IMG/VR virus record: IMGVR_UViG_3300037882_001356
Location: 1-59,691 of that record
Length of the DNA: 59,691 nt
Source of the DNA: a virus
Taxonomy: Duplodnaviria > Caudoviricetes
Direction: 5' to 3' (one strand)
A model generated the notes under the pieces. The model did no database searches, had not been told where the DNA came from, and worked only from the letters and a program-made list of their open reading frames with translations. A program made the translations under genes and the position numbers. Below are positions 7,693-59,535 of the stretch, piece after piece (the stretch's first letter is position 1; each line of letters starts with the position of its first letter).

Positions 7693-7888
7693 AGTTGATG
7701 GGGGTCAGTTCATCGAAGGAGGTGGACGCCACCAACGCGGCAAGGGATACGAAGCCGATATTGAGAAGTTAAACGAGGCGATGTTGTTGGAGTGGTCCGT
7801 TCTTAGGGTCACTCCCGCACACGTCAAAGATGGTCGAGCGTTACAGTGGATTGAGCGAATGTTGAAACAAAATGAACGAACGTTATGA
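7451..7888 (+). CDS. Vsr/DUF559-like PD-(D/E)XK endonuclease
   Basis: FRFHPSRKWELDIAWP-IAVEVDGG-GRH-D-EKLN-WSVLRVT. Confidence 0.85.
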   Translation: MAARLSISEAIAAGIEIPPLNEPAKLLKKRAKLTGAFDCADTLGQVLNMVKIYGWVRDFRFHPSRKWELDIAWPELMIAVEVDGGQFIEGGGRHQRGKGYEADIEKLNEAMLLEWSVLRVTPAHVKDGRALQWIERMLKQNERTL

Positions 7889-8507
7889 CCTATACGCTGT
7901 GGTTGTAGACAACCCCTTTGACGATGCCCCGCGTCTTATTTTCGCTGATTACTTGGAAGAGCGTGATCAGGAAGAGTTTGCTCACTTCATTCGCACGACG
8001 ATAAAAATTCACTCGAAAAACTTATCCCCAGATGACCGCTATACTCTTGGCGGTCAAGTGATCCTGAATCGTTCGTCTTGGTTCCCTGATGCCCACAACG
8101 CAGGGCAGATTATTTTCAACCATAAAGAGCCGCCTTATATAACTCGAACATGGCCGTTATTCAACGTGCTTCGCGGATTCCCTACCGAGTGCAACCTAAC
8201 CCTGCATCAATTTGTTACTCAAAGAAAAGACATTGTTGCAACAAACCCCATTTGCAAATGGACAATATCTGATCGCCTTCCTCAATGGAGAGAGTCAAAC
8301 AATTGGGATCAAGAATATTCCGATGGCTATGAATTTGAATTTGGCTCAGACAAGGAAATACCAGAACGACCATATCTTCCTTGGAAGTGGCTTGAGTACG
8401 CGGAGAGCTACGGCCTGAATTTAGAGCAACGCTTTGACGATAGTAGACAAGCTAATTTGAAGCTAGAAAAATTTCTTTGGTTGTACGCAAGAGATGGTAC
8501 AAAATAA
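7872..8507 (+). CDS. TIGR02996-domain protein
   Basis: N-terminal VVDNPFDDAPRLIFADYLEERDQEEFAHFIR; later RGF...NPI..W.ISDRLP. Confidence 0.85.
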   Translation: MNERYDLYAVVVDNPFDDAPRLIFADYLEERDQEEFAHFIRTTIKIHSKNLSPDDRYTLGGQVILNRSSWFPDAHNAGQIIFNHKEPPYITRTWPLFNVLRGFPTECNLTLHQFVTQRKDIVATNPICKWTISDRLPQWRESNNWDQEYSDGYEFEFGSDKEIPERPYLPWKWLEYAESYGLNLEQRFDDSRQANLKLEKFLWLYARDGTK

Positions 8508-8539
8508 AACCCCGCTAGCGGAAGGAAGGCTAGCGGGGT
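8502..8539 (-). terminator. rho-independent terminator (minus strand)
   Basis: 11-bp stem ACCCCGCTAGC/GCTAGCGGGGT, followed on the minus strand by a T-run. Confidence 0.7.
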
Positions 8540-8585
8540 CCAACAAGGAAGCAACGGAGGTTGCTACTTAGTTCATCGTCACTTC

Positions 8586-8930
8586 TCAGCGTCTTGCACA
8601 ATTTCCGTTGGGACAGTTTTGATAAATCACTCGCGAACCTACCGGATATGCCGTAGGCGTTGACTGTACGGCATTGCAACGCCCGTTGGAACAGTTTGCT
8701 GGTTGTGACGCGATGATTGGGCTAGTACCGCTTTGCTTCGCTGCGATGTGGGCTTTCAACGCCTCAACCATCCCTGCCGGACATTTGAACGTCCCGCCGT
8801 CCGTGGGGTCCAGAACGTCCACAATCGTATCGGGATTGGTCGCTGGCAACGTTTTTGGGGCATCTTTGGCGACGGGGGTTTGTGCGTTCAGGAATCCAGC
8901 ACTGAGGCACAACACAAACAGGATACGCAT
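8586..8930 (-). CDS. secreted protein with CxNGxC motifs
   Basis: Signal peptide MRILFVLCLSAGFLNAQ; CSNGRC and C-terminal CPNGNCARR. Confidence 0.7.
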   Translation of the reverse strand: MRILFVLCLSAGFLNAQTPVAKDAPKTLPATNPDTIVDVLDPTDGGTFKCPAGMVEALKAHIAAKQSGTSPIIASQPANCSNGRCNAVQSTPTAYPVGSRVIYQNCPNGNCARR

Positions 8931-9399
8931 AACACTACTCCTTTGTCCGGGTGAGAAGTTCACCCGGTCGGAAAAGTGTATCGGTTGTTTGACGGACGAA
9001 CAAGAGCAAAAGTTTTTGAACTATTTTCTACAACGTGGCTTGCATCTGACAACGATAATGGTAGGATATGACGTATCGCCTAACAAATACAAAGAGGAAG
9101 ATGATGGGTAGTAAAAAGTTGAGTCATGTAACATTGCCTCAGGCCCTTGAGTATTTCAGCGGCCATTCAGGGGGAGCGGCTCACAACCATCCTTGTGTGG
9201 GTGCTTCTTCTGCTGGGATAACAGTGTCATGCAAAAAAGTATCAATGACATTCCGCTTAGATCAATTCGATATGGCAATGAGTTTTTACAAGTTCTGTTT
9301 GGCAGAAAGCGGCTACAAAGTGTAAACAGAAAAACCTTCCGGCGACTCGCCCACTATCACCGGAAGGCCAAAGGAAGTCCGCCCGGATGAGGAGCGTAC

Positions 9400-9846
9400 A
9401 TGATTAGCCTAATCGAAGTGTTGCGACGTGTCAACGGTCAGCCGCAAAATGTGCAGATTCTCGTCGGCTACGAAGCGGATACGGGCATTCTGACCATCGG
9501 CACGGACATCCGCAAGAGTCGCACGACAGGGGCCAAACGTCCCGCGACACTCGAAACGTACGCCGTTGAGGAGTACCCAAGCTACGACGGCACAAAGAAG
9601 CCGGAAGTGCCCGGACGTTCGTTTCACCTCAAGAAGCAATCGAACGGCGAATTGTACAGCGTATTCATCTCGGAGACGGGGAACGCCGAACTGGACGATA
9701 TCAAGAATTTGTGCGTGTGTATGGGGTTCATGCACACGGGCATTTGCAAGCATTGCGATTCTGTGAAATACCTTGTCAAAAATGGACTCATCGCCGATCC
9801 AAAAGAGTATGCGGAATCTGTTTTCAGCGAAGAACTAGGGTTTTAA
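9400..9846 (+). CDS. SWIM Zn-finger protein
   Basis: CVCMGF-x5-CKH; RBS gaggag. Confidence 0.75.
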   Translation: MISLIEVLRRVNGQPQNVQILVGYEADTGILTIGTDIRKSRTTGAKRPATLETYAVEEYPSYDGTKKPEVPGRSFHLKKQSNGELYSVFISETGNAELDDIKNLCVCMGFMHTGICKHCDSVKYLVKNGLIADPKEYAESVFSEELGF

Positions 9847-9860
9847 CAAAGGGAGTAGAA

Positions 9861-10376
9861 ATGGTAGAGTTGTTTGTTGTAGCTGGGGCACTTCTTGTTT
9901 TTGGATTTATAGCGCTTATTTGCATTTTAGGTGCGGACGAATGCGAAAAGAAAAACGAGGCACTTGAGGAGGTTAAACTACTGAAAAAAAAACTTGTTGA
10001 CGCCGAGGACATTTGGAAGAAGTATCAACAATCCGAGTCGCAAATAAAGGTTCTCACAAGAGAAGTTACGTTAGCGGAAGAGGAAATAAATCGTCTTGTC
10101 CGAGTAAAAGAACACCACGAACAAACGCTGGAACAACTACGAATTCAGATTCGGAAGTACGAAGAAGACATTGACTCGCCAGAGGTTAAAGACCTGCAAG
10201 ATACCATCGAGAAGATGCGTCTGCGACACGCCGAAGAATTAAGCATCGTTGAGGAAAACCGCTACGATTTGAACAAGGTGATCGAAGGAATCTCGAAGGA
10301 ATTGCGTCTTGCTGCCGGTCGCCTTGATGGGTTGTGCATCCCGTTCTGGCCAACAAAAAAGGGTGGGTCAAAGTGA
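9861..10376 (+). CDS. membrane-anchored coiled-coil protein
   Basis: N-terminal TM helix then an E/K-rich heptad region; RBS aaagggag. Confidence 0.7.
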   Translation: MVELFVVAGALLVFGFIALICILGADECEKKNEALEEVKLLKKKLVDAEDIWKKYQQSESQIKVLTREVTLAEEEINRLVRVKEHHEQTLEQLRIQIRKYEEDIDSPEVKDLQDTIEKMRLRHAEELSIVEENRYDLNKVIEGISKELRLAAGRLDGLCIPFWPTKKGGSK

Positions 10377-14031: not shown

Positions 14032-14832
14032 TTACGCCGTCAATGGGTTAACCCGATAGGGAACCCAAAAGTCACTCGCTAACTGTGGATTCAACGCATA
14101 CTCAAGAGGGATCGTACCGTAGCCGTCTGAACCCCAACTTGTATCCCAACTGTTGCGAATGATGAGGTTGTTTTGATCGTAGCCTACTACCGCGATGTCA
14201 TGACCGCCGATTGGACCGTTGCGAAGGTCGTTCTGCGTCGGCATCGGGATATTGCCCGTCCGTGCCGTCGAATCGGTCATCAACGATGGGTACACGCTGA
14301 ACCCGAAGATAAACGGACGCCCCTGATATTGACTGTTGCCAGCCAAGCACGCCTTGAACGAGTTGAGCGATTGCGGAACTGCCCGATACTCGGCAATCTT
14401 GTTCTTCGCTGCTTCGGCGAACGCTTCATCCGAAGGACGTTCGCGGAAACGACTGGTATCGTAGGGCATCATTCGTTCGGGGAAGAAGCCGAACTTGTTC
14501 AACGCCTTCATCAGATTGCGGTTATCAACGCCCGAATCTTGGTTGACCGTTCCCATCAGCGACCGGACCATCCAGTACAACCCCAAACGCGACGGCATTT
14601 CGACTTCGACGCCATCCGCCTCGGTGGAGTACAAGACGCAAAATAACGCCGTATGCGGCCCGCAACTTCCAATGTCAAGTTGTGACCATGCGGGGTTAAT
14701 AGGACCGCTCAACGCCTTGACGGGGAGCAGGAAACTTGACGGGTATTCTTCCGCCGTTTCGGGTGCGGAGAAGATGCGGTCTTGTGCGTCAAAGGCTTGT
14801 TTGACAAAGCCAGAGATATTGTACTGTGGCAT
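14032..14832 (-). CDS. papain-like cysteine peptidase (C1A)
   Basis: Q-x3-GSC, GGHDIAVVGY and IRNSWDTSWGSDGY give the catalytic Cys/His/Asn. Confidence 0.92.
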   Translation of the reverse strand: MPQYNISGFVKQAFDAQDRIFSAPETAEEYPSSFLLPVKALSGPINPAWSQLDIGSCGPHTALFCVLYSTEADGVEVEMPSRLGLYWMVRSLMGTVNQDSGVDNRNLMKALNKFGFFPERMMPYDTSRFRERPSDEAFAEAAKNKIAEYRAVPQSLNSFKACLAGNSQYQGRPFIFGFSVYPSLMTDSTARTGNIPMPTQNDLRNGPIGGHDIAVVGYDQNNLIIRNSWDTSWGSDGYGTIPLEYALNPQLASDFWVPYRVNPLTA

Positions 14833-20809: not shown

Positions 20810-21481
20810 TTACGACTTTTGTGCCACAACCAATTGACCCGCATCCCAAACAAGCGTCGTCACGATGCGACACTTCCGCTTTACGATAGCATGCTGTAAC
20901 TCCAAATGGCTTGGAATTTGCAGATGCCCCATGATGTACACGTTGGCGTACGTGTGCCACGGCCGGGGGGTTTGGATTTGAATAATCCCCTTCGGCGATA
21001 GGGCAAGGATTAACTCGTCTAGGAACGTATGGAAGTCGGGAACGTGTTCGATTACTTCCCGGCATTGAATCGCCCCGTATTGTCGCGGGAACAACGACGC
21101 CTTGAATTCAGGGGCAATCGTCGTGTGCGGTCCCATATCGCAGCAAGGGACGACATCGAAACCGTGGACCGCGTATCCTTCGTCCTGCATGTTGGCGAGT
21201 GCCGCCCCGTCACAATGCCCAACGTCAAGGAAGTCCAGATTCGGGCAGAGGTGCTTGTAGCGGGTGAAGTAGCCAACGTTGGTTGTTTGTTGGTTGCGTG
21301 ACTCGTCGAAGTTTACGCCCGTTTGGAGTCGATAAACTTCTAGGTAGTTGGTGTAGAGGTCAGGGTTGTAGACTTCTTCACTGCTGGACGAATTGCACTC
21401 GAAGCAATGCCACCACGGACCACCGGGAGCGTGATGGTGAATGCGGGTCGTGTTGGGCGAGTGACAGATTTTGCAATTCAT
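20810..21481 (-). CDS. class I SAM-dependent methyltransferase with N-terminal Zn finger
   Basis: CKIC..CFEC; FLDVGHCDG, GFDV, CREVIEHVPD, IQTP. Confidence 0.85.
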   Translation of the reverse strand: MNCKICHSPNTTRIHHHAPGGPWWHCFECNSSSSEEVYNPDLYTNYLEVYRLQTGVNFDESRNQQTTNVGYFTRYKHLCPNLDFLDVGHCDGAALANMQDEGYAVHGFDVVPCCDMGPHTTIAPEFKASLFPRQYGAIQCREVIEHVPDFHTFLDELILALSPKGIIQIQTPRPWHTYANVYIMGHLQIPSHLELQHAIVKRKCRIVTTLVWDAGQLVVAQKS

Positions 21482-22128
21482 TTTGAGCGACTCGGCACGA
21501 AGAGGGCACGCTTCCGCGTTGCCGTAGGTCGTGCGGGAGCGAGATAATACACCGCGATGGTATGACGCGACTGCGGTCCTGTCACCACTTCGCATCCGTG
21601 GAACGACGTATCAGTAGGTTCCCACAACACCAACCGCCCCCGCTTCGGATAGATTCGGGTCACGACTTTGTTGCCCATGTCGTCATAGAAGCACAACGCC
21701 CCACCCCATTGCTCTTGCCAATCGTCAAGGAACAAGATGGCGTTTAGTCGTCGTTCCATGTTGGGAATGTGCGGATGTAGTGCGTAGTCGATGTGCGGGG
21801 CAAGGAACCCACCGGGATCGGTAACGTGAAGACCGCCACCGTGGAGCGTGTCGTCGCCGCGAATTCCGTCAATGTCAAACTTGAAATCGACACACAACGA
21901 TTGAGCAACTTCTTTTTCTAGTAATGTTTTTACGGCGACGTTGACCGACAACGGCAAGTTGTCCAAGTCATTGCATGATCGTTTGCGTTCGTGATCGTTG
22001 GCGTACACGGCCCATTTCCCCGAGTACTTTGGGAGCGATACAAGAAATTGATTGCCAATGTTGTAGGCATTATCAATTACCCAATGACGGAAAGGTGTTT
22101 CGCATTCTGTTGCTTCCAGTTCACCCAT
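21478..22128 (-). CDS. 2OG-Fe(II) oxygenase
   Basis: HxD (HID), RRLNAILFL, WGGAL, distal H (SFHG) and R (SRHTIAVYY). Confidence 0.88.
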   Translation of the reverse strand: MGELEATECETPFRHWVIDNAYNIGNQFLVSLPKYSGKWAVYANDHERKRSCNDLDNLPLSVNVAVKTLLEKEVAQSLCVDFKFDIDGIRGDDTLHGGGLHVTDPGGFLAPHIDYALHPHIPNMERRLNAILFLDDWQEQWGGALCFYDDMGNKVVTRIYPKRGRLVLWEPTDTSFHGCEVVTGPQSRHTIAVYYLAPARPTATRKRALFVPSRSK

Positions 22129-35820: not shown

Positions 35821-38724
35821 TTATTTTGTGGCGGGTTCGGGGTAGTATTTTTCAAAGGATTTGTCTTCGAGGAAGATGTTGTAATACATGCCGGTGAGGT
35901 CGTCGTATTTCTCTTTAATCTTCTCATCCAAGCTGCTTAAAACTTCTTCTCGATCACCCCGCAAATCGTAGAGTCGGTCGTTCGCTCTCTCGGCTTTTCT
36001 TTCTTCGGCACGAGCCATCTTTTCAACTTGGGAATTTCTCTCTTCAGTCAATCGCTCAAATTGACTTTCTACCTTGTCTTTTGTTGCTTCCCATTCCTTT
36101 TGAGCCGCTTGATATTCGAGCCATTCGGGGGTTGGGGTATCTTCCAACTCGTCGAAGTCGGCATCTTCGGGAATGCCAAAATCGTAGGTGTTTGGCTCTT
36201 CGGGAATATGGTTCGCAAAAAATTCTTCTTCGTTTAACTCCGGGATTTTTTCGCTGGCCCACTCTTCAAAATCAAACGAACTAGGATCGTCTGTAAGCAA
36301 ATCCTTTTGTATGGTGGCGATTTGTTCGTCTATTTTTGCGACCTTCTCAGATGCCCGATCAATCGTGGTCGCAATTGATTTCAACCCCGCATCTGCTTTT
36401 CGATTCGCTTTGTCCACGGCCTTATCCGCACCATACTTGCGTAGCGTATCGGCGTATTGCTTCACATCTGCGACGAGTGCTTGGGGAATCTTTTCTTTCA
36501 ACTCAGACAAGGTTTCTGTAGTCACTGTTTCGTACTGTCCTAAATCCGTTTCTAACAACGACAACGCATCGTCTAGACTTTCATTGCTAACGCCATCCGT
36601 TAAAAAATCGTCATCTACCGGGTCAAGTTTGTCCGGCGATTCAGTGTATTCTTTCTTGCTTGCTTGTTCTTGTTGTGTGCCAAGTTCTTTTTCTAGTTTC
36701 GCCCGCTGTTCGGGATCGGTCACGCGGGAAAGCAATTCCTCAGCCTTGTCAGGGTCATTTTTCGCCGCGTCCATTTCATCCTTTGACACGAACCGCCCAT
36801 GATCGTCGCGGGGATGATCGGATTCGCTGAACGCCTTGAGAACTCCATTTGTGTAACCGTTCGCGTGGCTGTTTTTACCCACGACTATCGCCTTTTTCAC
36901 TTTGCCTTCGGACGGCATGTGTTGCTTAATCAACGCCACGATTTCATCCGTACTCATCTTTCTCTTCGTGCCGTCTTCAAACTCTACCTCAGAGTAGGTT
37001 TTGCCAGTCTTGAGGTCAAATTGCGGCTTGCCTCGTTTCATGCCAATATCTGACAACGCACCATTCACTTGGTCTACGGACCATTTCTTGGAATTTTTGG
37101 GCAAGAATACTTTGATTTGTTTCTTACCCCCTTCTTTCTTCTCGCCACTTGATCCACCGCCTCCCGTCTCAGAAAACTGACCTTCATCGTCACGCTTAAT
37201 CTTCGACTCATCGAACGCCCGCAACACGCTTTCTCGCCCGTTGAGTTGATGGGACCGCATCGCCCCACCTAACGCACCTTTGCCCGCTGTGTTGACGGGT
37301 GGCGTGCCTGCCCCGTCGTCACCTTCGGATGGCATACCATTCTTGGCCTGAACACGTTCCGCTTGCATCTGGTTCTTCTGTGCGGAAATGGTCAATTCCT
37401 TTTCCTTCATCTCGCGTTCTGCCGCCGAGGGATCGCCCGCAATCTCGTCGTCGCGTTCGTCGCCAAACAACGGCAAACCGAGCAGGGAGTTGAGTTTCCC
37501 CTTCGTGATGCTCTTGGCTTTGATGGCGATGTCCAAGCGTGCCCGTTGTTCTTCTTTGTCGTCAATCGCCGGCGGGTCGATCTGGACGCGGTAATCCGGC
37601 CCCCAGAACGGCAGGATCAATTCCCGCGTCCAGAATTGGCCACGCTTGCGACATTCAGGTAATAGGGTGTTCGTATAAAACTGTTTCAACGCTGCGAAGT
37701 ACGTCGCGTAGGTAGTGGCCGATACAAGGCCAACAATCTCTTTCGGGATGTTCATCACCGAACAGAGGAACGTAACGAGTTGTTCCCATACTTCCACGCC
37801 TCCGAGGTCGTTGAGCGTTCGTGACCACGGACTGAACTTCGCCCCGCCCATCAGGACGGGAATTTTACCGCTGTTCTTCGCCCCAGCGTAGACTTGCTCA
37901 ATCTTCAATTGCAATTGCTTCACGGCATCGGCGTTAGTTCCAACGGGTGTCTCGATGAACCCGGTCGGATTGACCCCCTGATTCGACGAGGCGAGTCGTG
38001 CGATGTCGATTTGGGCAAGGATGTCACGCTGTACCGAAGTCGCTTGGAGCGTCGAGTATCCGTCCCACTGTGCCCACGGATGCGGGTTGCGGTTCACCAT
38101 CACCTGTTCGGCGGGGAGAACGGTTCCGGTTGCCTGTGACGTGACTGGCGACGACGTAAACTGACCGTACAACGCCGGTTGCGTGACTCGCCACGCCCCA
38201 TGCGGATAGTACTGCGAGATCGGGAACGGTTGCGTGAGGCACGTTGGGACCACGTATAATTCGCACGGTTCGCCGTAGCCGTTCGGTACTTTCCATGTGT
38301 AATCGGAACCTGTCAGCAAGAATTGCATGCAAGATTCGTGCAACACGTCCCCGATGGATTGACGGGGATTCGGTCGCTCGAAAATCTTGCATTGATGGTA
38401 AATGTCATCGTTCTCGTCGACGGGTTCCCATTTGTCGTCAGTTTCCTGACCGCCCGCTTGCGTCATGGCCTTTTTGATCGACGTAGTAGCCTTTGCTTGG
38501 GTGCGTTTCCGCTTCATGATCGTCACGTTGGACGACGACATGGCCCGGCACAGGCTGTTAACGATGGGGTAGAGGACGCCGTAGTAGGCTTGCGATTCAG
38601 CCCAGTGGTTGGTGATCCAATTGGAGGGCGGAATCTGCTTGATGGTTTCCAAGTAGCGTTCCCGTTGTTGACGGTCGCTATCGGAGCCTGATGAGGACGC
38701 GAGGAAATCGAGTTCGGTATCCAT
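35821..38724 (-). CDS. portal protein with ~500-aa C-terminal extension
   Basis: ERPNP, LTGSDY, GYSTLQ, NQGVNPTG, GAKNSGKIPVLMGGAKF, MNIPKEIVG in the first ~430 aa. Confidence 0.9.
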   Translation of the reverse strand: MDTELDFLASSSGSDSDRQQRERYLETIKQIPPSNWITNHWAESQAYYGVLYPIVNSLCRAMSSSNVTIMKRKRTQAKATTSIKKAMTQAGGQETDDKWEPVDENDDIYHQCKIFERPNPRQSIGDVLHESCMQFLLTGSDYTWKVPNGYGEPCELYVVPTCLTQPFPISQYYPHGAWRVTQPALYGQFTSSPVTSQATGTVLPAEQVMVNRNPHPWAQWDGYSTLQATSVQRDILAQIDIARLASSNQGVNPTGFIETPVGTNADAVKQLQLKIEQVYAGAKNSGKIPVLMGGAKFSPWSRTLNDLGGVEVWEQLVTFLCSVMNIPKEIVGLVSATTYATYFAALKQFYTNTLLPECRKRGQFWTRELILPFWGPDYRVQIDPPAIDDKEEQRARLDIAIKAKSITKGKLNSLLGLPLFGDERDDEIAGDPSAAEREMKEKELTISAQKNQMQAERVQAKNGMPSEGDDGAGTPPVNTAGKGALGGAMRSHQLNGRESVLRAFDESKIKRDDEGQFSETGGGGSSGEKKEGGKKQIKVFLPKNSKKWSVDQVNGALSDIGMKRGKPQFDLKTGKTYSEVEFEDGTKRKMSTDEIVALIKQHMPSEGKVKKAIVVGKNSHANGYTNGVLKAFSESDHPRDDHGRFVSKDEMDAAKNDPDKAEELLSRVTDPEQRAKLEKELGTQQEQASKKEYTESPDKLDPVDDDFLTDGVSNESLDDALSLLETDLGQYETVTTETLSELKEKIPQALVADVKQYADTLRKYGADKAVDKANRKADAGLKSIATTIDRASEKVAKIDEQIATIQKDLLTDDPSSFDFEEWASEKIPELNEEEFFANHIPEEPNTYDFGIPEDADFDELEDTPTPEWLEYQAAQKEWEATKDKVESQFERLTEERNSQVEKMARAEERKAERANDRLYDLRGDREEVLSSLDEKIKEKYDDLTGMYYNIFLEDKSFEKYYPEPATK

Positions 38725-39152: not shown

Positions 39153-39856
39153 TCATTCTCCCTTGTTAAGTGTGCCTTGTTTGGCCATGCGGATCAGAGT
39201 TGACGAGAGATTTTCGTAGGCGTCTTGTTTGGACACCGAGCAGCGGAACCCATTAACCCAAACGCCAGTCAAAGATTCGTAGACATCTCGCGGTACGTTG
39301 TAAGATTCCTGTTGCAATCCTTGTGATCTGAAGTTCCACCCGAATTCATTTAAGGGACTAACAGCGATTGGTGACTTCCCCACAATCCGCACCTCCTCAA
39401 TCGGGAAGTTCTGCACCAGATTCGACCCAAACTTCCGCCACACGGCAAACGACGTGTGTATAGCGGAAACGAACCCCCGCGACACACAGATGTAAATTCT
39501 GTCTAAATCTGCAATGGAAGTCGGCCCAGTGCCATCACGATAAAAAATATGTGCTGAATACCCGATTACTTCGCGAAGTTCATCGTAACAAATTCCCGTT
39601 GTCGAATGGTTCATCCCATTTGCAACGTCAACACATGCCAACGAGCGAATCCTCTTTCTCAAGACATCCGTTCCTTGTCGTTTCTTTTTCGTTCTTCCAG
39701 CTCAATCCCCAACCGAATCAACTCTGCCCGTGCGTCGTTTTCCTCTGTACCCCGTTCTTCCAGCCAATCCGCGTAGATCAACCGTGGGGCATCGTCTGCC
39801 GGGTTCGCAATGATGGCTTGCACGAAGGCGTGGCGGTCGCTGGTCAACGTTACCAT
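39153..39856 (-). pseudogene. TIGR02996-domain gene split by a 1-nt frameshift
   Basis: 39856-39659 has AIIANPADDAPRLIYADWLEE. 39662-39153 (-1 frame) has the RGFV..I...P.E.V C-domain seen in intact paralogs. Confidence 0.75.
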
Positions 39857-39947: not shown

Positions 39948-39979
39948 CTACTTGCTTTGTTGTTGGACGATGGTAAGAT
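39948..39979 (+). promoter_or_regulatory. repeated promoter (family with 44658, 50732)
   Basis: CTACTTGCTTTGTTGTTGGA...TGGTAAGAT. Confidence 0.7.
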
Positions 39980-40001
39980 GAGGTTGCCCAACAAAGGAGA
40001 G

Positions 40002-40331: not shown

Positions 40332-40334
40332 CCC

Positions 40335-40547
40335 ATGCCGCGTACCTTAGTAACCTTCCGAAGCGTCCGGGTGTATGTGGACTACCGACAAATCGCAACG
40401 CATTGGACGCCAATCGGTCCAGCGTTCGACATCGAATGGACCTTCGTGAACCCCATGCTCGAAGACCTTATTCTCTCCGAGGCGGAATCGGACGACATCA
40501 CCGAGCAACTACGGAACTGCGACGACGCCGGAGACGTGAACCCATGA
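40335..40547 (+). CDS. small acidic hypothetical protein
   Basis: RBS aaggag; coupled. Confidence 0.6.
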   Translation: MPRTLVTFRSVRVYVDYRQIATHWTPIGPAFDIEWTFVNPMLEDLILSEAESDDITEQLRNCDDAGDVNP

Positions 40548-40663
40548 CTAACGACCGTGACGCCATTTACAACGCCATCCTTGCTAATCCTCTGGCGGTT
40601 CAAAGTAGAATCGGAACGCTAGAAGAACACGTCCACATCAGGAACTACACTTCTCAGGCGTGA
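40544..40663 (+). pseudogene. truncated TIGR02996 N-terminus
   Basis: MTNDRDAIYNAILANP, then runs into the terL 3' end. Confidence 0.5.
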
Positions 40664-42121
40664 ACAGATGTACCTAAAACTATCCATGAGGTGGAAAGTT
40701 TCCTTGTCCGTGATGGACTCAAGCACGTTGCCGCTCTCGTCAGTGTCTCTCACGTAGTCGCCGATTTGAGCGATGAATTGTTTGCAGTGACTGGATACCA
40801 TCAAGCCCGGCGTCGTGCCAATACCACCAGCTTTAATCTGAGCGTAACACCTTGCAATACCAACGTTAACATCAGGTTGATCGGGTTCGAGGATTGGGTA
40901 TCCGCCATCCTCAAAGTCGAGACGCCATTGGTTTTCACCCTTGCTACCACCACAGCACAAATCAGGTAGTGCCGTCTCGCCTTCCATAAGCGAGACAATG
41001 TGTTCGCGGGAAGTCTTGGACTCTTTAGGAAGGTACTCCCGATAAAGAATCAATCGACCGGAAAGAATCTCTTTCCCCGGTTCAGCGTCGTCGGGGATCA
41101 TCTCCGCAGCGTAGAACGTCGCCGCAAAGTTCGGTGCTCCAAAGTCGATCCCCACGTATCGCGGCCAATGTGATGGCGGATGATTGTTCTGACAGTCGCC
41201 GAAATACTTGATAGGGTCATAAACCATTCCGGTGTTCAAGCCGTCGCATAAGTTAGGATCGAACACATCGAATATCTGCCCCGGTGGTCGGGTGAGGATG
41301 CCACGGTAAAATAAGTCGAACTTGTACGTCGGTAACGTCTGCCTAGCTCTATCCCACTCCTCCATCGGGAAGAGCGGATTCGCCCGCGACTCGAACGACA
41401 CGACACGATAGTTCTTGTCCTTCGGCTGCTCGTTGACCGTGCCCCTACGCTTCCACGAGTCGAAAATCTCGGTCTTGATCCAGTGGCTTAGCATGTACGG
41501 CGTCGTGGTCATCAACGCCCGACCCTCATCAATGGCAAGGCGTCGATTGATCGCTTCCCACGAATCGGACTTGAACCCCTTTTGACCCGCCTCATCCAGC
41601 CATGCGGCTTTGTACTCAGCGGCTTCGAGTGAATCGGGAGCAGCGGCGTGACCGAATACCACCCGCGACGGTTCATGCTCGTTGTACGGGATGTTCGGCC
41701 AAATCATCGAGTGACCGCGTTCCGACACCACGAAGTAACCGGACGCCCCGCCGACGATCCGGCCTAACTTTAGTTCGGAACAGAAGATGCGACGTAACGC
41801 CTTGTAGATGCCCTTTTCCAGAATCTTGAACGACGGGGCAACGGCGAGATATTCACCCGGACCTTTCCGCATCATCTCCTTGAGAAGCCAAAACGGGCCG
41901 CCAAGAGTCTTGCCCGAACGCGACCCAGCCATGACGAGTACAAATCGTTCCGTCGCGTCGTAGGCTTCTTTCTGTGCTTTGTGGAAGTTGCCGGTCAGCG
42001 TGCCGTCTTCCCATGACAGGAACTTATCGGAACGCTTCTCGATGACCGCGAACAGTGGCTTCGTTCGCGGCTCGACCTTCTTCGGCTTGAGGAAGTGATT
42101 AACTAAATCGGCGTACTTCAT
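40619..42121 (-). CDS. terL: terminase large subunit
   Basis: Walker A AGSRSGKT, Walker B AWLDEAG, TTTP, nuclease GIDFG and HLMDSFRY. Confidence 0.93.
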   Translation of the reverse strand: MKYADLVNHFLKPKKVEPRTKPLFAVIEKRSDKFLSWEDGTLTGNFHKAQKEAYDATERFVLVMAGSRSGKTLGGPFWLLKEMMRKGPGEYLAVAPSFKILEKGIYKALRRIFCSELKLGRIVGGASGYFVVSERGHSMIWPNIPYNEHEPSRVVFGHAAAPDSLEAAEYKAAWLDEAGQKGFKSDSWEAINRRLAIDEGRALMTTTPYMLSHWIKTEIFDSWKRRGTVNEQPKDKNYRVVSFESRANPLFPMEEWDRARQTLPTYKFDLFYRGILTRPPGQIFDVFDPNLCDGLNTGMVYDPIKYFGDCQNNHPPSHWPRYVGIDFGAPNFAATFYAAEMIPDDAEPGKEILSGRLILYREYLPKESKTSREHIVSLMEGETALPDLCCGGSKGENQWRLDFEDGGYPILEPDQPDVNVGIARCYAQIKAGGIGTTPGLMVSSHCKQFIAQIGDYVRDTDESGNVLESITDKETFHLMDSFRYICSRLRSVVPDVDVFF

Positions 42122-44722: not shown

Positions 44723-45070
44723 ATGACGACCACTACACCCGCCCCGACGCTCGACCTCTGGGGCAAGCAACTCGATGAGTTGTTCCGTACCATCCGGTTA
44801 GTGATGGATCAACCCCGCATGGAAGACCGCGAAAAACTCGCCGCACTCCGCGACTACGCCGCCACAATTGGCGACGACACCGCATCCGCCTTTGAGCGAT
44901 TTTTACAACTTCAATGCAGTGACAACTCCCTCTTCGCCGCCGCTCCCGATCTTCTGGACGTGTGCAAGGCGATGGTGGGGGAACTGGACCAAGTCCTCGG
45001 CGTGTTCTCCGAGTTCGGCCTGCGTGACCAATTACGTGCTGCAATCGACAAAGCGGAAGGAAAATCATGA
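44723..45070 (+). CDS. hypothetical protein with AAPDLL...AAIDKAEG motif
   Basis: RBS taaggag; common phage C-terminal motif. Confidence 0.7.
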   Translation: MTTTTPAPTLDLWGKQLDELFRTIRLVMDQPRMEDREKLAALRDYAATIGDDTASAFERFLQLQCSDNSLFAAAPDLLDVCKAMVGELDQVLGVFSEFGLRDQLRAAIDKAEGKS

Positions 45071-45354
45071 CCCACATTGAAACCACGATGGCCGACTGGC
45101 TAGCCAACGGTCCCCGGTACGTGTCGGAGGGGGTCACGTCAGTACGGATCATTAACAAAGAGCCTGCCACGAGTGTTAAAGGTGAACGGTATTGGTGTCC
45201 AGATACCGCCGGAATCCCAGAGTCGTACTACGATATCCCGCGATTGATCGCCCCGAAAATCAGCTTTCACGCCACCCGCGAAGATGCCAACGCCTTCCTC
45301 AGTGAGTCGTGTATCATCTGGGCACGGCAACAACTCAAGGAGAAAGCGTCATGA
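45067..45354 (+). CDS. stand-alone C-terminal domain of the TIGR02996-family phage proteins
   Basis: WLANG..V...VTSVRIINKEP...DIP...REDANAFLSESCIIWAR aligns with the C-terminus of 48240-49004. Confidence 0.65.
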   Translation: MTHIETTMADWLANGPRYVSEGVTSVRIINKEPATSVKGERYWCPDTAGIPESYYDIPRLIAPKISFHATREDANAFLSESCIIWARQQLKEKAS

Positions 45355-45635
45355 GTATCCTAGACGGGGCTCGACTGTTCCAACGCATGCTCGATACGCC
45401 CGACGACAACGCGGCACGGCTGATACTGGCCGATTGGTTGCAAGAGAATGGCCGCGAAGGACTGGCGGAGCAGTTCCGGCTTGCCGATCCGCAACGGGTT
45501 CATGAGATGAGGATTGCACGGTTGAGTTCTGCAACGTCTATTTACGCTGGATGGCTATCTGGTCCTAGTACCAGCATAGGTAATAACAACCCATTGACAC
45601 GTGCCATCAAAATACTTGACGAGGAACTTTCATGA
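45351..45635 (+). CDS. short TIGR02996-domain protein
   Basis: MLDTPDDNAARLILADWLQENGREGLAE. Confidence 0.8.
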   Translation: MSILDGARLFQRMLDTPDDNAARLILADWLQENGREGLAEQFRLADPQRVHEMRIARLSSATSIYAGWLSGPSTSIGNNNPLTRAIKILDEELS

Positions 45636-46024
45636 CCCTCACCGACCTCATGCCGTTCCTGAACACGTTCGCGGACAATCCCGCAGACTGGTTCGTTTGG
45701 AAAGCGATGGCCGACTACTTTTCCGATCATGGTGATGATGTTGGGGAAGAATGGGCGTTGTGGGTGGAAGAGAAGCGGGTTTTTGTCATCAAGAGCAAAA
45801 TTGGCGACCAATACCGATGGTATTTCAACGAGAATGGGTCAGTGCTCCCATAAAAACTATGGAATACTTACATTAGAATTGATTTTGGCGACTGGTGGTG
45901 CGGTCGTCTTAATCCTCAGGAATGCTACCTGTTCCTACTCGCCGCTTGGCGTCAATCAACCCACAACCAACGGAATAAGTACAAGGAATGGTGTTCAGCG
46001 CCCCAAACACATGCCGACGTATGA
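45632..46024 (+). pseudogene. divergent TIGR02996-like gene with in-frame TAA at 45851-45853
   Basis: ADNPADWFVWKAMADYFSDHG; the frame stays open past the TAA (LP*KLW...YLFLLAAWRQ) to TGA 46024. Confidence 0.6.
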
Positions 46025-46177: not shown

Positions 46178-46831
46178 GTGAAAAAAGACCGTTCGAAAAA
46201 CAATTTGTCTCATAAAGAACGATTGGATTTAGTCGCTAGCGTAAATGATTTCTGTCACCGAATGGCTAAGAAGTTTGGGCGGAATGTCCCAAATGACCGA
46301 GACGACCTGTTTCAATTGGCATGGCTAGCGGCCTACGACGCTGCTGTTCATTATATCCCCAACGAAACGTCGTCCTATTTCACTTACGCATTTGTGGTCA
46401 TCCGTGGGGCGATGCTTAATCACCATCGCCAACAACGGCAACGAAAGATGGGGGCAATAATCAATGATGAACTATGGGATGGGGAGAGAAAATTTGACGG
46501 TCAATTTGAATGGCAAGAAGTGGCCAAAATGGTAAGCAATCTTGTTCGACGCTCTTTGCCAAACAAATCCCACCGCAACATATTTTGGAGCTACTACTAC
46601 GAAGAAGTTCCGACGGAAATCATTGCCAAGTCATACGGGATTAGCACCACAAGAGTGCGACAATTAAACCATCGTTCGATGAAAACGATACGAGAACGGA
46701 TCGACAACGAGATTATGTTATTTCTTGAGGACAGCAACAAAAACTACTTCTCGCCTTCTAATTCATTCCTCTACAACGATGGCGAAACGTCCCAAGAGAA
46801 CGCCATTCGCCTGATGGAAGATTCCGTTTGA
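46178..46831 (+). CDS. sigma-70-family factor (regions 2 and 4)
   Basis: DRDDLFQ.A...A..Y......YFTYA...IRGAM; EIIAKSYGISTTRVRQL. Confidence 0.82.
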   Translation: MKKDRSKNNLSHKERLDLVASVNDFCHRMAKKFGRNVPNDRDDLFQLAWLAAYDAAVHYIPNETSSYFTYAFVVIRGAMLNHHRQQRQRKMGAIINDELWDGERKFDGQFEWQEVAKMVSNLVRRSLPNKSHRNIFWSYYYEEVPTEIIAKSYGISTTRVRQLNHRSMKTIRERIDNEIMLFLEDSNKNYFSPSNSFLYNDGETSQENAIRLMEDSV

Positions 46832-48037: not shown

Positions 48038-48243
48038 ATGAATTTGCAATCATACTATCAAATTTACGTGACGAAAACGACATGATGAACGCTCTTCGTC
48101 GCACGCTGACAATTGAGCAATACATTGCCATCCTCAGAGACAAGACCGCCATGCAGCTTATCTCAAACTTGATGGTAAATGATTTGGACAATGGCCTGCG
48201 TAACGTTGCCAATGACCGAGTGACTGAGCTGTTGGATGGCTAG
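48034..48243 (+). CDS. hypothetical protein
   Basis: RBS aggag; ATGA coupling. Confidence 0.6.
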   Translation: MNEFAIILSNLRDENDMMNALRRTLTIEQYIAILRDKTAMQLISNLMVNDLDNGLRNVANDRVTELLDG

Positions 48244-49004
48244 GATTTGGCCCATGCGAGTAGGGCACGGGAGAGGTCTTCAATAGCGTACTCTGATAAT
48301 TCATAGCCACGCCAAGATGATTGCGTTCCATCCTTGAGATGGCAAAACACTTCGCTCGGAATGTTTGGTGATTCGATTGACGACGTGACACGATGCCGCC
48401 ACCACGCAAACCGATTCTCTTTTTCGCACAAGAGACGCTGGAACGGTTTTTTATCCGTTGCCATCACTTTCGTCACCGGATGCTCCCGCACAATGTCCTT
48501 GCCGTGGTCGAGCCATTGTTGTAGGGTGCAGTGAATTTCATCGACGAATCCACGCCGAACAATGCCAACGATACCATCAGGGCGTTGCTTGTTCCACACC
48601 CAATTTCCGTCTTGAGTCGCAGCGAATTCATCTTTGCAGTGAGATGATTTCAGCCACGACAAGGCGTCGAGATAACCGTCTTCATTTTTGTTAGCCGATT
48701 CCATCCACGTATCATCGCCAAACCATCTTGGATGTTTGATTTGACAGCGGATCAACGCGGCCCGCTCCGCAAAGCCGTTGGAGACTCGGCCAGTGCCGTG
48801 GCAATTACCGCATGGGATAATATCCGTTTTGAATCCGTACACGCTTTCTATCTTTCCGCCGAGGCCATCGCAAATAAAGCAACACGATTCCACCACATTC
48901 TCATCCAACCAATCGGCGAAAATCAGTCGCGGGGCATCATCTTCCGGGTTGGCGATGATCGCGTTGAGCAACGCCAGTTGGGTGATGTCGGTGATCGTGT
49001 TCAT
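48240..49004 (-). CDS. TIGR02996-domain protein with DnaJ-type Zn-finger insert
   Basis: LLNAIIANPEDDAPRLIFADWLDE; CFICDGLG..CGNCHGTG; RRGFVDEI..HPVTKV. Confidence 0.88.
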   Translation of the reverse strand: MNTITDITQLALLNAIIANPEDDAPRLIFADWLDENVVESCCFICDGLGGKIESVYGFKTDIIPCGNCHGTGRVSNGFAERAALIRCQIKHPRWFGDDTWMESANKNEDGYLDALSWLKSSHCKDEFAATQDGNWVWNKQRPDGIVGIVRRGFVDEIHCTLQQWLDHGKDIVREHPVTKVMATDKKPFQRLLCEKENRFAWWRHRVTSSIESPNIPSEVFCHLKDGTQSSWRGYELSEYAIEDLSRALLAWAKS

Positions 49005-49264
49005 TTCGCTCGTCCCTCATCCAGTAACGCGTCCACGGTCGAATCAAACTCGCTCGCCAACTCCGGCCACTTCGCCCGGATCGCCTTGGCGAGCAGCTTG
49101 TTCCCGTCCTCAAGAGCACATTGGTAATCGGTGATAATCATCTCGGTAGCGGTGCGGAACTTGTCGCCACCGTTGTAAGTGATTTCCTGATAGATGATTC
49201 GGTCGGATCGTGACAGGGAGGCCACAATCCGACGCGTCAAGTCCCGTTTCTCGGCGTTGGTCAC
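49001..49264 (-). CDS. hypothetical protein
   Basis: Coupled ORF chain. Confidence 0.6.
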   Translation of the reverse strand: MTNAEKRDLTRRIVASLSRSDRIIYQEITYNGGDKFRTATEMIITDYQCALEDGNKLLAKAIRAKWPELASEFDSTVDALLDEGRAK

Positions 49265-55390: not shown

Positions 55391-55399
55391 GCCATCATC

Positions 55400-55525
55400 C
55401 TACGTTGTGGGTTGTAGGTTGTCTACGTCAGTTCGCGGCGAAAGTTCGGCGAAGCGTGGGGCATCGTCGGCGGGATTGTCGAGTATCGCCCGCAAGAGAA
55501 CGTCGGCATCGGTGTACGTGGTCAT
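55400..55525 (-). pseudogene. truncated TIGR02996 domain
   Basis: MTTYTDADVLLRAILDNPADDAPR, then the motif is lost. Confidence 0.7.
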
Positions 55526-58318: not shown

Positions 58319-58560
58319 TTCCCTTCCTCTGGTTGCACGCCATCAAGTAGGCGTTGGGTTGCCAAGGAGATTGCTTCCTGTGCGTAAATGTGCCGCTTGC
58401 CGACGACAAGGGGCGTTTGCTGGACGACAGCGGCACACTTGGAACGAGCGTTCCCGACCATGTTCTCAACGAGCTCGAGAATCTCTTGCCCTAGAAAGTC
58501 GTTGATCTCGCCCGTGTCGATGGCTCCATTGATGTAGCCGCGAAATTCTTCCATCGTCAT
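58315..58560 (-). CDS. hypothetical protein, first gene of the leftward early operon
   Basis: RBS gagga; downstream of a TTGCAT..TATACT promoter. Confidence 0.6.
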   Translation of the reverse strand: MTMEEFRGYINGAIDTGEINDFLGQEILELVENMVGNARSKCAAVVQQTPLVVGKRHIYAQEAISLATQRLLDGVQPEEGK

Positions 58561-58650
58561 ACGCTTTCCTCTTACAAAGTGTGTCGTTAGTTGCTAGTAT
58601 AATAGCTACGTCCGAATATGCAACAATAAACTTTGTAGGATTGTCAAATA

Positions 58651-59001
58651 ATGGCCAAGAAACAAGAACAAGAACCCGCTAAGCCAAAGAGCAAAGCCAA
58701 GTTCTTCATCAAAAACGTCGGGCACGTACTGCGTGATATTCGCATTGAGCTTGAACTCAATCAGGCCACGCTTGAGAAACGGAGCCGAATCAAGCAACAG
58801 TCGATTGCCCGCATCGAACAAACCGGGTCCGCACGGTTTCACGTCGTACGGCAACTCGCCTACGCTCTGGGCGTGTCACTGGATGAGATTTCCCGCCGTA
58901 TGGGACCGATTATCCCCGGCGACATGAAAGTCGAGAACGCGGAGGGAATTTTCTTCCGCGATTGGGACAGCTACAACGCTGACCGATGGGCTGCCAGATA
59001 A
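58651..59001 (+). CDS. XRE-family HTH transcriptional regulator
   Basis: LRDIRIELELNQATLEKRSRIKQQSIARIEQ...LAYALGVSLDEI. Confidence 0.85.
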   Translation: MAKKQEQEPAKPKSKAKFFIKNVGHVLRDIRIELELNQATLEKRSRIKQQSIARIEQTGSARFHVVRQLAYALGVSLDEISRRMGPIIPGDMKVENAEGIFFRDWDSYNADRWAAR

Positions 59002-59010
59002 AATTCGTAG

Positions 59011-59055
59011 TCTTACCAAAATTGTTGTTGACAATATGGAATGACGTGGTACATT
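59011..59055 (+). promoter_or_regulatory. early rightward promoter
   Basis: TTGACA(59028)-16-TACATT with the TCTTAC box. Confidence 0.65.
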
Positions 59056-59089
59056 TTACTTTGTCGACAACAACAAAGGAAACGATGCG

Positions 59090-59347
59090 ATGGAAATTGG
59101 AAGCAACTATTTTATCAGGACTGATACGGACCATTGGCTAGGACGTTTAGTTTCAGTTGATGGTCCGTACACCGTGACGCTCGAAGACTTCGCATGGGTA
59201 GCAAGTGCGGGAAGGCTTAATGAGTTCCTAAACAAAGGAACGGCGAATGAAATGGAAATTGAGCATGCACCTGATGGCATGCGTATAACGTTGAATTGGC
59301 GTGCGTGCATCACATGGCCACATGATTTGATTCGGAGGACGGTGTAA
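59090..59347 (+). CDS. small Sm/LSm-like beta-barrel protein
   Basis: IGSNYFIRT...GRLVSV....VTLEDFAWVASAGR. Confidence 0.6.
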   Translation: MEIGSNYFIRTDTDHWLGRLVSVDGPYTVTLEDFAWVASAGRLNEFLNKGTANEMEIEHAPDGMRITLNWRACITWPHDLIRRTV

Positions 59348-59535
59348 TGCTGCCTTATCCAACACCGACGTATGCAGTTCAACTCGCGGCGGCAGATTGG
59401 TGCTATGAAAATGGCATGGATCAATTCGCGGATCGCCTACGCGAAGTAAGACCAATGTCAACGTCATGCTTGGTTTTATATTTTTCGGGGTCGTGGTCGT
59501 GGTCGCGGTCGGGGTCGTGGTCGTGGTCGACATGA
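59347..59535 (+). CDS. peptide with ADW.xENG motif and (Ser-Trp/Arg/Gly)n tail
   Basis: TAATG coupling; AAADWCYENG...SGSWSWSRSGSWSWST. Confidence 0.55.
   Translation: MLPYPTPTYAVQLAAADWCYENGMDQFADRLREVRPMSTSCLVLYFSGSWSWSRSGSWSWST

Follow-up and report, generated by a model that had tools for sequence, protein, structure and literature searches.

The family name of TIGR02996 (NCBIfam, 'rpt_mate_G_obs') describes a companion of C-terminal repeats, for example LRR, and in Gemmata-like planctomycetes it marks a paralog family that ranks among the largest, reaching 79 matches in a single genome. Viruses elsewhere make use of interaction modules from host multi-gene families: DED-only vFLIPs and poxviral pyrin-only proteins retain the host interaction module and drop the sensor or effector part. 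Few studies of planctomycete phages are known to us; our literature search on planctomycete prophages listed none on the subject, and the TIGR02996 accession was not found in the literature searched.

We analysed a tailed-phage record from IMG/VR, and the window, here and below, is that whole 59.7-kb stretch of DNA. That the record belongs to a phage was borne out, since portal, large terminase, major head protein and tape measure are all recognised; the hosts of the phage are Gemmata-like bacteria. The genes on which the comparison turns, with portal and large terminase as context, are the following:

7872..8507, plus strand, full N+C gene, 211 aa (TIGR02996 44-47 bits; C-HMM E 2e-27, seed member)
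35821..38724, minus strand, portal protein, 967 aa (phrog_12 E 5.7e-33; PF04860 E 1.7e-30)
39153..39662, minus strand, C-domain ORF of a split copy, 169 aa (C-HMM E 1.4e-14, independent)
39659..39856, minus strand, N-module ORF of the split copy, 65 aa (TIGR02996 66.8-67.3 bits)
40619..42121, minus strand, large terminase subunit (phrog_2 E 3.6e-23)
45067..45354, plus strand, C-domain-alone gene, 95 aa (C-HMM E 4.4e-10)
45351..45635, plus strand, N-half-alone gene, 94 aa (TIGR02996 36-38 bits)
48240..49004, minus strand, full N+C gene, 254 aa (TIGR02996 47-49 bits; C-HMM E 4e-39, seed member)

An earlier note on this DNA had read a recurring motif as TIGR02996, and this identification holds. 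Four sites (7872, 45351, 48240-49004 and 39659-39856) exceed the curated cut-off of 29.05 bits, with scores of 36.2-67.3 bits, and among them are all three copies, at 7872, 45351 and 48240-49004, that had been called intact. The matches lie at 39698-39838(-) with 66.8 bits, 48897-48974(-) with 47.1 bits, 7881-8006(+) with 47.0 bits and 45369-45479(+) with 36.2 bits, the domain of 39659..39856 being the top-scoring one of the window, and the same search in 14 control genomes gave zero matches over the cut-off. The domain is N-terminal, the match beginning at residue 4-11 in all four proteins, and its hairpin carries the near-invariant motif NPxDDxPRL(I/V)(F/Y)ADWLxE. No Pfam or PHROG family matched the window copies; LRR or other repeat families were not found at E<=1 in any of them, the LRR models (PF13516 LRR_6 and relatives) had no match in the phage proteins, and F-box models (PF00646, PF12937) were absent among the E<=1 matches of 10 window proteins.

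The second conserved domain proposed to follow the motif is real and was recovered by HMM. Searched against the six-frame translation, the C-domain model gave exactly four occurrences (48243-49016, 7866-8504, 39156-39701 and 45028-45351; E 4e-39 to 4e-10, the next at E 1.8), one of them without an N-domain, as had been described. Because the seed alignment included the 48243-49016 and 7866-8504 copies, only those at 39156-39701 and 45028-45351 are independent matches. We define the phage-type N+C family by two features of a single ~200-300-aa protein, a TIGR02996 hairpin and the whole RRGF C-domain (C-HMM positions ~3-115); 48240-49004 and 7872-8507 belong to it as they stand, and 39153-39856 only when read through a -1 shift. 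The 48240..49004 protein, for which we found 79 homologs, is laid out as TIGR02996 hairpin, DnaJ-type zinc-finger insert, RAALIR helix, variable linker and RRGF C-domain, while 7872..8507, without a zinc finger, lies in the early/replication module after a methyltransferase.

The 39153-39856 copy, located between large terminase and portal, is frameshifted as had been claimed: its N and C ORFs stand in different frames, the C ORF in the -1 frame, with a 4 nt overlap in which the N ORF terminates in a TGA overlapping the next ORF. The overlap zone has CGAAAAAGAAAC, and no RNA structure stands out there (z -0.38). At 45067-45635, the C-alone gene begins just past the RRGF position and its stop overlaps the start of the N-half gene (ATGA), which has the TIGR02996 hairpin, an AEQFRL helix and the linker W, without RRGF. 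A 99-aa relative of the C-alone gene (P0225) shares 67% identity and L002 holds a similar ORF. The two ORFs are intact genes, coupled by ATGA overlaps, and not broken copies.

Further sites had been put forward as broken or degenerate copies:

40544..40660, plus strand, marginal 16-residue N-like fragment (N-HMM E 0.026)
45632..45853, plus strand, weak divergent N-like ORF, 73 aa (TIGR02996 14 bits, E 0.003-0.03)
55400..55525, minus strand, truncated remnant with the first ~25 N-domain residues (N-HMM E 2.4e-6)
59347..59535, plus strand, put forward as degenerate, no significant match (0 families at E<=1; N-HMM E 3.5)

The truncation at 55400..55525 is a true remnant, since its match (55451-55510; 18.3-19.9 bits, E 1.5e-4 to 4.5e-4) covers TIGR02996 profile positions 1-20 only and then diverges and stops, with no N-domain continuation in other frames. 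The one claimed at 40544 is marginal: it was not reported by the TIGR02996 search at E<=1, and on the opposite strand it overlaps the terminase gene at its 3' end. A nonsense codon at 45632-46024 is unsupported, because the HMM search found no family-like sequence downstream of the stop codon of 45632..45853, whose own TIGR02996 match (45653-45739) is below cut-off (N-HMM E 5), and the degenerate copy at 59347 is unsupported as well. The window very probably contains two genes that are full and one that is split, together with a C-alone and N-half gene pair and at least one remnant. Its paralogs share 25-36% identity over whole proteins, and in the 26-codon core of two of them 7 codons are identical, 11 show synonymous differences and 8 change the residue. 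Since identity is this low and synonymous motif sites are largely changed, no recent birth is visible; the motif is under purifying selection and the paralogs are old. Decay is confined to a split copy and a clear remnant, one of each, and both the 'many broken copies' and their 'rapid birth and death' were overstated.

The relation to the host proteins was seen by profile comparison. Aligned by hhalign with host TIGR02996-LRR proteins, the phage family gave a probability of 99.96% and E 9.5e-39 over 127 columns, and the alignment runs through the RRGF hairpin, the following helix and the HPVxxVxLTD strand. Because the homology extends this far, the conserved unit measures 130-150 aa and the 'short helical tag' of the earlier note, which corresponds to the 45-residue model, has to be given up. 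The shared unit covers the first half of what had been called the C-domain, and only the last ~70 residues are phage-type, standing where hosts have the LRR array; the idea of tags on non-LRR bodies is right in that LRRs are missing, but the body is homologous to the host proteins over 130-150 residues. Both groups share the hairpin (NPxDDxPRLVYADWL), the RAEFIR helix, the linker W and the RRGF-helix-strand over the first 127-152 profile columns, with identity of up to 85% over a 26-residue motif stretch (L084); both look cytoplasmic, a signal peptide not being seen by eye, and both are encoded by multi-copy, often tandem genes. Hosts continue into RI/CC-type LRRs (PF13516, PF12799), whereas the phage form ends in the ~70-residue tail, and sizes differ (~380-560 aa for the host TIGR02996-LRR proteins sampled, ~200-290 aa for phage proteins). 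We are confident that the phage carries paralogs of this Gemmataceae family in LRR-less form, cytoplasmic and of ~210-250 aa per full gene. Beside the host genes no conserved neighbour was found in 79 genome loci, the commonest ones (in 8, 7 and 6 of them) being kinase- or sulfatase-like as judged by first residues only.

These N+C proteins form, with little doubt, a large family of ~200-290 aa widespread in phages and proviruses. At E<=1e-30 there are at least 223 clusters (50% identity), the best 150 listed being nearly all full-length N+C proteins of 170-300 aa, and of 90 viral stretches that matched, 74 proved to be relatives. The 50 viral records, each picked for already matching, all have matches (1-10 each; at least two in 34, at least four in 12), and 10 are of the provirus class. 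The carriers are, as proposed, Gemmataceae and other Planctomycetota, and a count of copies shows the phage to be far denser in TIGR02996 domains than the hosts (4-6 matches per 0.06 Mb vs 2-79 per 7.9-9.4 Mb). Full-length N+C copies are rare in Gemmataceae chromosomes: five host genomes with 28, 79, 56, 2 and 65 TIGR02996 matches have 2, ~3, 0, 0 and 1 full C-domains. Those of the 79-match genome sit in a prophage that also encodes capsid, portal, Erf and integrase, in Limnoglobus full N+C occurs near an integrase and transposases, and in the tree the full-length copies of hosts branch within the viral ones.

AF2 gave compact, confident models of the 48240..49004 protein (pLDDT 79.8, pTM 0.76) and of the C-domain alone (pLDDT 89.5, pTM 0.83), with no enzymatic family among them; the whole-protein pTM points to a single body in which the N and C parts pack together. 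For the C part, an ESM Atlas model aligned best with LRR_6 clusters, at TM 0.45-0.47, a lead only. The N hairpin has weak matches to TPR, Pex5 and EMC2-type helices (VIA Z 3.9-4.2) and to the PDB TPR protein PA4667 (E 0.87, the alignment spanning the motif); its conservation could serve folding, with the hairpin as a TPR-like solenoid cap, instead of binding. In the zinc-finger insert, two CxxCxGxG motifs and a local Foldseek match to DnaJ cysteine-rich domains (prob 0.98, rmsd 3.2, 40 columns) uphold the DnaJ-like Zn finger proposed for it, but at 12.4 bits (E 0.2) it stays below the PF00684 gathering cut-off of 32.7. One homolog, P0030, has PF00684 in a precomputed table, and in BFVD matches at prob 1.00 are numerous among small phage zinc-finger proteins. 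The linker is the variable region, and among homologs zinc-finger inserts occur at two different positions.

The best overall explanation, to which we assign a probability of roughly 0.35, is that these LRR-less paralogs act as putative decoys or adaptors on the host family; that action, taken by itself, is tentative and rather doubtful. Each full protein very probably runs from a TPR-like helical hairpin through the RAEFIR helix and a hypervariable linker, which may hold the zinc finger, to the RRGF hairpin-helix-strand, and the ~70-residue phage-type tail closes a compact alpha/beta domain. In action, such proteins would be non-enzymatic binders that the infected cell produces, in many cases from the late/structural operon. 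Their conserved N-module would engage the same partner or surface as the host proteins, linker, zinc finger and tail would determine what each paralog brings or blocks, and the phage copies would compete with the host family or redirect it.

The late-operon location is equally compatible with a virion or assembly role. A head-assembly or virion-borne accessory (a chaperone or ejected cargo), with host likeness reflecting common ancestry only, is an unlikely alternative that draws on gene position. The order terminase, TIGR02996 gene, portal is found in the window, where the gene is the split copy, and in L037 and L050, the gene stands directly upstream of the portal in L034 and the Gemmata prophage, and L016 and L061 have it at the same or an adjacent position; head/packaging genes are among the nearest large ORFs at 20 of 46 viral loci, a raw count with no null model, and the neighbour-ORF scan covered 108 of 188 ORFs. 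The position varies, however (before portal, before major head protein, after terminase), and accessory genes in general often lie at the terminase-portal junction. The DnaJ-type zinc finger, a chaperone-associated motif, would suit such a role, but copies also lie among early/replication genes (7872, and beside helicase or primase genes in L042, L044 and L070), and a copy number of 1-10 is unusual for core assembly genes.

About as improbable is that the N hairpin is a structural TPR-like cap only, the phage proteins being generic small scaffolds whose targets differ by paralog, unconnected with host partners. All weak matches of the N part are to TPR-type helical repeats, the domain is always N-terminal with homology unbroken into the RRGF unit, and the whole-protein pTM fits as well; caps are seldom so conserved, though (up to 85% phage-host identity along 26 residues vs <36% elsewhere), and an N-half gene alone (45351-45635) would be odd for a mere cap. 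Less likely again are lysogen-benefit or exclusion morons from prophages, independent of the host TIGR02996-LRR family, which would shield the lysogen from other phages or change the physiology of the host. The proviruses among the viral records, the copies in the Gemmata prophage and Limnoglobus and the multi-copy, variable nature of the family speak for them, but no integrase/repressor module was identified beside the window's TIGR02996 copies, which are co-oriented with the structural genes and not separate cassettes, and in PADLOC-DB 2.0 neither the 6 window proteins nor the 5 Gemmataceae-genome proteins searched (one prophage-borne) matched any family at E<=0.01. Decaying cargo, that is, pseudogenes or neutral passengers from hosts by recombination, is very improbable, for despite the split copy, the remnant and marginal fragments, an in-frame TAG within the conserved helix in another phage (L019) and long branches (2.65 for the 7872 copy, the longest, and 1.6 for another window copy; median 0.84), the motif is kept while synonymous sites are heavily changed, start-stop overlaps couple intact ORFs, hundreds of diverged full-length relatives exist and C-alone is kept at 67% identity elsewhere.

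A bolder form of the decoy or adaptor reading is a long shot: the tandem arrays of cytoplasmic TIGR02996-LRR proteins in Gemmataceae would serve innate pattern recognition, with the LRR as sensor of invaders and the N-module as adaptor for assembly or signalling, and phage N+C proteins would be adaptor-only mimics capping or poisoning assembly. In bacteria they would then parallel the DED-, CARD- or pyrin-only decoys of viruses, an arms race would drive change in the linker and zinc finger, and frequent siting beside portal and terminase, proteins recognised by other bacterial sensors, would ensure production together with them.

New here are the N+C family itself and the 130-150-residue phage-host homology. 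With a conserved unit three times the length of the curated model, the domain boundary of the family becomes defined, and the LRR-less phage versions are a natural 'module-only' set that offers a concrete virus-host hypothesis and, for planctomycete phages, a candidate family with an accessory or counter-defence role. Compared with known systems, the zinc finger shares its two CxxCxGxG motifs and local structure with the DnaJ cysteine-rich domain (PF00684), Anti-TRAP and BSD2; it differs from DnaJ in being an optional insert at two alternative positions, without a J domain. F-box/LRR proteins (eukaryotic FBXL; Ralstonia GALA effectors) likewise place a short helical N-module before CC-type LRRs, and Kajava et al. 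2008 (PMC2244805) describe GALA-like CC-LRRs in Gemmata proteins without an F-box. The window proteins differ in having no F-box match at E<=1, and the conserved unit in its 130-150 aa with a beta-alpha-beta element. We know of no Skp1-like partner in these bacteria, and the F-box/LRR likeness is best taken as an analogy of layout only. By analogy, too, the phage N+C proteins would resemble vFLIPs and pyrin-only decoys, in which the interaction module of a host multi-gene family is retained.

A regular-expression scan recovered the core motif at the places where the earlier note had read it, and a profile search identified this motif as TIGR02996, with four sites in the window exceeding the NCBIfam cut-off of 29.05 bits. 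The TIGR02996 search gave zero matches over the cut-off in 14 control genomes.

TIGR02996 matches in the window
39698-39838 (-), 66.8-67.3 bits
48897-48974 (-), 47-49 bits
7881-8006 (+), 44-47 bits
45369-45479 (+), 36-38 bits
55451-55510 (-), below the cut-off, 18.3 bits, profile positions 1-20 only
45653-45739 (+), below the cut-off, 14 bits

Separate HMMs for the TIGR02996 hairpin part (N) and for the RRGF-containing part that follows it (C) were built from an alignment of 27 full-length relatives (A2), two window copies among them. The C HMM matched exactly four ORFs in the six-frame translation (next match, E 1.8), including, outside the seed, 39156-39701 (E 1.4e-14) and 45028-45351 (E 4.4e-10), which bears out the claim of a shared C-domain that once stands alone. 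The copy described as truncated at 55400 is indeed so: the domain ends after PRF and its continuation is absent from the other frames. At 40544-40660, proposed as a further truncated copy, only a marginal 16-position fragment matched the N HMM (E 0.026), and the degenerate copy suggested at 59347 gave a non-significant E of 3.5 with the same model; the end of that claimed ORF (~59470-59535) is a simple tandem repeat, read as GRGRGR... in one frame and as SGSWSWS... in another. The proposed nonsense codon in 45632-46024 is unsupported, as a search with the C and N HMMs found no family-like sequence past the stop codon.

The 254-aa gene (48240-49004), which has both parts and lacks LRRs (N+C), retrieved 79 relatives in a protein search, many spanning 95-100% of the query, and the sole name given was 'TIGR02996 family'. 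The family alignment shows, in order, an invariant hairpin, a RAEFIR helix, a hypervariable linker, an invariant RRGF, a helix, a HPVxxVxLTD strand, a conserved W and a final LSxAxxxWA helix, with CxxCxGxG zinc-finger inserts at either of two positions. Among 1.84 billion representatives searched with a profile, 13,854 proteins matched at E<=0.001 and 223 at E<=1e-30, counts that mix N-only or N-bearing proteins with N+C proteins because the N-terminal columns of the profile (A4) came from one full-length row. The best 150 representatives were nearly all full-length matches of 170-300 aa, and a few were tandem fusions. Two metagenomic relatives, P0082 (603 aa) and P0083 (477 aa), carry two N+C units each, and another, P0093 (468 aa), has three consecutive C-domains without the N hairpin and then an unrelated C-terminal segment.

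Host proteins encoded on Gemmataceae contigs have the N hairpin, RAxFIR, W and RGF, and then LRRs. When the phage alignment was compared as a profile with that of 24 host TIGR02996-LRR proteins (A8), the two matched with a probability of 99.96% (E 9.5e-39, 127 columns), in an alignment that extends from residue 1 to RRGFVDEI...HPVTKVVLTD. Because it ends there, the region that the earlier note had called the C-domain, conserved as claimed, is half host-homologous, and its last ~70 residues alone are phage-type.

In IMG/VR, 74 of 90 pattern-matched stretches, making 72 loci, encode relatives, and in the species-genome collection at least 464 of 627 stretches do so; the best 80 of these 464 are almost all from Gemmataceae, Gemmatales and other Planctomycetota, and their carriers include Limnoglobus roseus, Gemmata sp. 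IIL30 and G. algarum. Five host genomes of 7.9-9.4 Mb contain 28, 79, 56, 2 and 65 TIGR02996 matches, and the window, with 4-6 matches in 0.06 Mb, has ~10 times the density of the richest host. Most host matches to the C profile span only its first ~40 positions, which are the shared RRGF unit, and full-length C-domains number ~2, 3, 0, 0 and 1 in the same five genomes. In Gemmata sp. IIL30 they belong to a prophage that also encodes capsid, portal, Erf, P22 AR and integrase; one copy in Limnoglobus has integrase, DUF3987 and transposase genes nearby, and one in G. algarum lies amid ordinary cellular genes. All 50 whole viral records, each preselected for having a match, contained one (16 with a single match, 34 with at least two, 12 with at least four, maximum 10), and against these the copy number of the window is towards the upper end, not exceptional. 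MAGs labelled 'uncultured Alcaligenaceae' hold dense, Gemmataceae-like tandem TIGR02996-LRR arrays (loci L088, L092, L094, L108, L114, L123, L124, L126, L131, L139, L141 and L151, the last with 7 N-bearing ORFs in 9 kb); these labels look doubtful.

The N+C proteins combine a frozen N-terminal module, which a huge host family also has, with a hypervariable middle and a compact end of the phage type, an anatomy that suggests binding proteins without enzymatic activity. The most economical mechanism that we infer, tentatively and with a probability of about 0.3, is that the N-module of the phage protein would act as a competitor for whatever the host module binds or, alternatively, would redirect that putative target, which would sharpen the earlier idea of decoys or hijackers. 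Among the 50 viral records, 10 are proviruses and 5 have terminal repeats; a moron of benefit to the lysogen would fit nearly as well.

AlphaFold2 models were obtained for the whole protein (pLDDT 79.8, pTM 0.76) and for the C-domain alone (pLDDT 89.5, pTM 0.83). Searches with Foldseek, VIA and BFVD found no solved or viral structure match beyond the zinc finger: for the whole protein, the best values were E 0.33 (Foldseek against PDB), Z 4.2 (VIA wide) and E 0.029 (BFVD, zinc-finger matches only), and for the C-domain alone E 2.9 (Foldseek) and Z 3.6, to BMC-shell-like chains (VIA). These searches establish neither a known nor a new fold for the C-domain. A PDB sequence search gave no match under E 0.7, and for these proteins Pfam, PHROG and PADLOC gave zero matches to families besides TIGR02996. 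For the C part, the Atlas model aligned best to planctomycete LRR clusters, at TM <0.5. The N part has weak matches to TPR-type helices, and a hairpin serving purely as a structural cap would fit nearly as well as competition or redirection. The complex prediction for the C-alone (A7) and N-half (A5) proteins, run without controls, scored 0.00 where the mark was 0.32, which is evidence neither way.

The window is a complete, linear IMG/VR virus record of 59,691 bases, with a CheckV completeness estimate of 64%. PHROG scans found portal, terminase and head genes, and Pfam confirmed the portal, so that the copies are correctly called phage-borne. No tRNA genes were found in the record, and a search for related phages via the terminase gave 8 pattern-matched stretches, 0 of them confirmed.

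Phage genes of the window (PHROG; portal also Pfam)
1731-2495, Erf
3027-3605 (+), sigma-factor-like gene (phrog_351)
3757-6174, helicase/primase-like gene
6191-7189, DNA methyltransferase
32903-34369 (-), major head protein
35821-38724 (-), portal
40619-42121 (-), large terminase
46178-46831 (+), sigma-factor-like gene (phrog_351)
Also head-tail adaptor and tape-measure-like genes

The two sigma-like genes matched with E 5e-14 and 7e-13, and the one at 46178-46831 sits immediately 3' of the C-alone/N-half/N-like cluster. Inside the tail/structural region are a 2OG-Fe(II) oxygenase-like gene (21478-22128(-), phrog_61, E 3.6e-8) and a peptidase-like gene (14032-14832(-), phrog_16701, E 5e-7). 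The window portal is 967 aa long, those of relatives 1117-1652 aa (L034:8390-13348, L037:7920-11273, L061:640-4365), and the Pfam portal domain spans only residues 114-402 of the window protein, leaving a large unexplained C-terminal extension. A 173-aa ORF without a family match, 39810-40331(+), lies opposite in strand to the flanking terminase/portal operon; the interval 39909-40381 is covered by contigs from three other metagenome studies, whose aligned pieces of 136-299 letters each differ at 3-15 letters (~90-98% alike), and this points to a conserved or mobile element.

The split copy of the window sits between terminase and portal, and BLAST/PHROG annotation placed N+C genes of other loci as follows.

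Position of N+C genes at other loci
Directly upstream of portal: L034
Between terminase and portal: L037, L050
Before major head protein: L016, L061
Upstream of portal: Gemmata prophage

A neighbour scan of 108 of 188 ORFs, with shorter ORFs and four loci left out, covered 46 viral loci. A head/packaging family was among the nearest large ORFs at 20 of the 46, a descriptive count without a null expectation; the neighbours were replication or methyltransferase genes at ~10 loci and transposases at 2. A head-associated or ejected protein would fit nearly as well as competition or redirection. No specific conserved neighbour was found beside the host genes. In each of two different genomes, a gene of ~1000 aa that fuses a sigma-70 domain to WD40 beta-propellers, L163:7542-10565 (genome G001) and L168:9684-12791 (G005), lies no more than 10 kb from a host full-length N+C gene, a proximity that may be chance given the many paralogs in these genomes.

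The split at 39153-39856 is real in the assembled sequence, with an N ORF and a C ORF in different frames; the N-ORF TGA overlaps the first candidate start of the C ORF, one base back, within an A-rich stretch. A programmed frameshift here is possible but not supported: a canonical X_XXY_YYZ heptamer was absent by eye at the split site, and the sequence past the A-rich site showed no outstanding RNA structure (z -0.38). Matching public contigs left the region 39655-39700 uncovered, five public runs, with no RNA run listed, shared only 5-8% of the sampled words, and a search for close relatives of the C ORF returned the window's own protein only (1 of 22 candidates).

The window paralogs are 25-36% identical among themselves, and the 254-aa gene has relatives at 63% and 54% on other contigs. 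Two paralogs aligned as DNA over the 26 codons of the motif core share 7 identical codons; another 11 differ only synonymously, and 8 encode a different residue. From the low paralog identity and these codon counts, the copies are old and the motif is under purifying selection. The earlier proposal of rapid birth and death is too strong: decay in the window is limited to one split gene and one remnant, and the age of the paralogs gives no sign of recent birth. Both the C-alone and the N-half gene are intact, with ATGA overlaps coupling them, and C-alone has a 99-aa relative at 67% identity and a counterpart in L002. An N+C gene of another phage (L019:9902-10930, record G020) has a single in-frame TAG within the conserved EFIRVQ helix, which may mark a pseudogene, reflect recoding or be a sequencing error; breakage therefore occurs elsewhere in the family. 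The three copies of the window did not come out as sisters in a quick tree built from 73 N+C proteins. An AU test did not reject a single clade for them (p 0.564; constrained tree 3.56 log-likelihood units higher), so that they may have arisen by duplication in the phage or by separate acquisition.

TIGR02996 is a known domain family of unknown function, and a search of open-access article texts found nothing on it in phages; within that literature, the N+C architecture without LRRs, the fact that it is common in phages and proviruses, and the extended homology boundary of the family appear to be undescribed. As for the F-box-like adaptor to which the earlier note had compared the host proteins, the likeness of F-box proteins to TIGR02996 proteins is in layout only. 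According to Kajava et al. (2008; PMC2244805), GALA-like LRR proteins of the CC type occur in Gemmata and carry no F-box, and for this reason the analogy is kept alive as one of layout.
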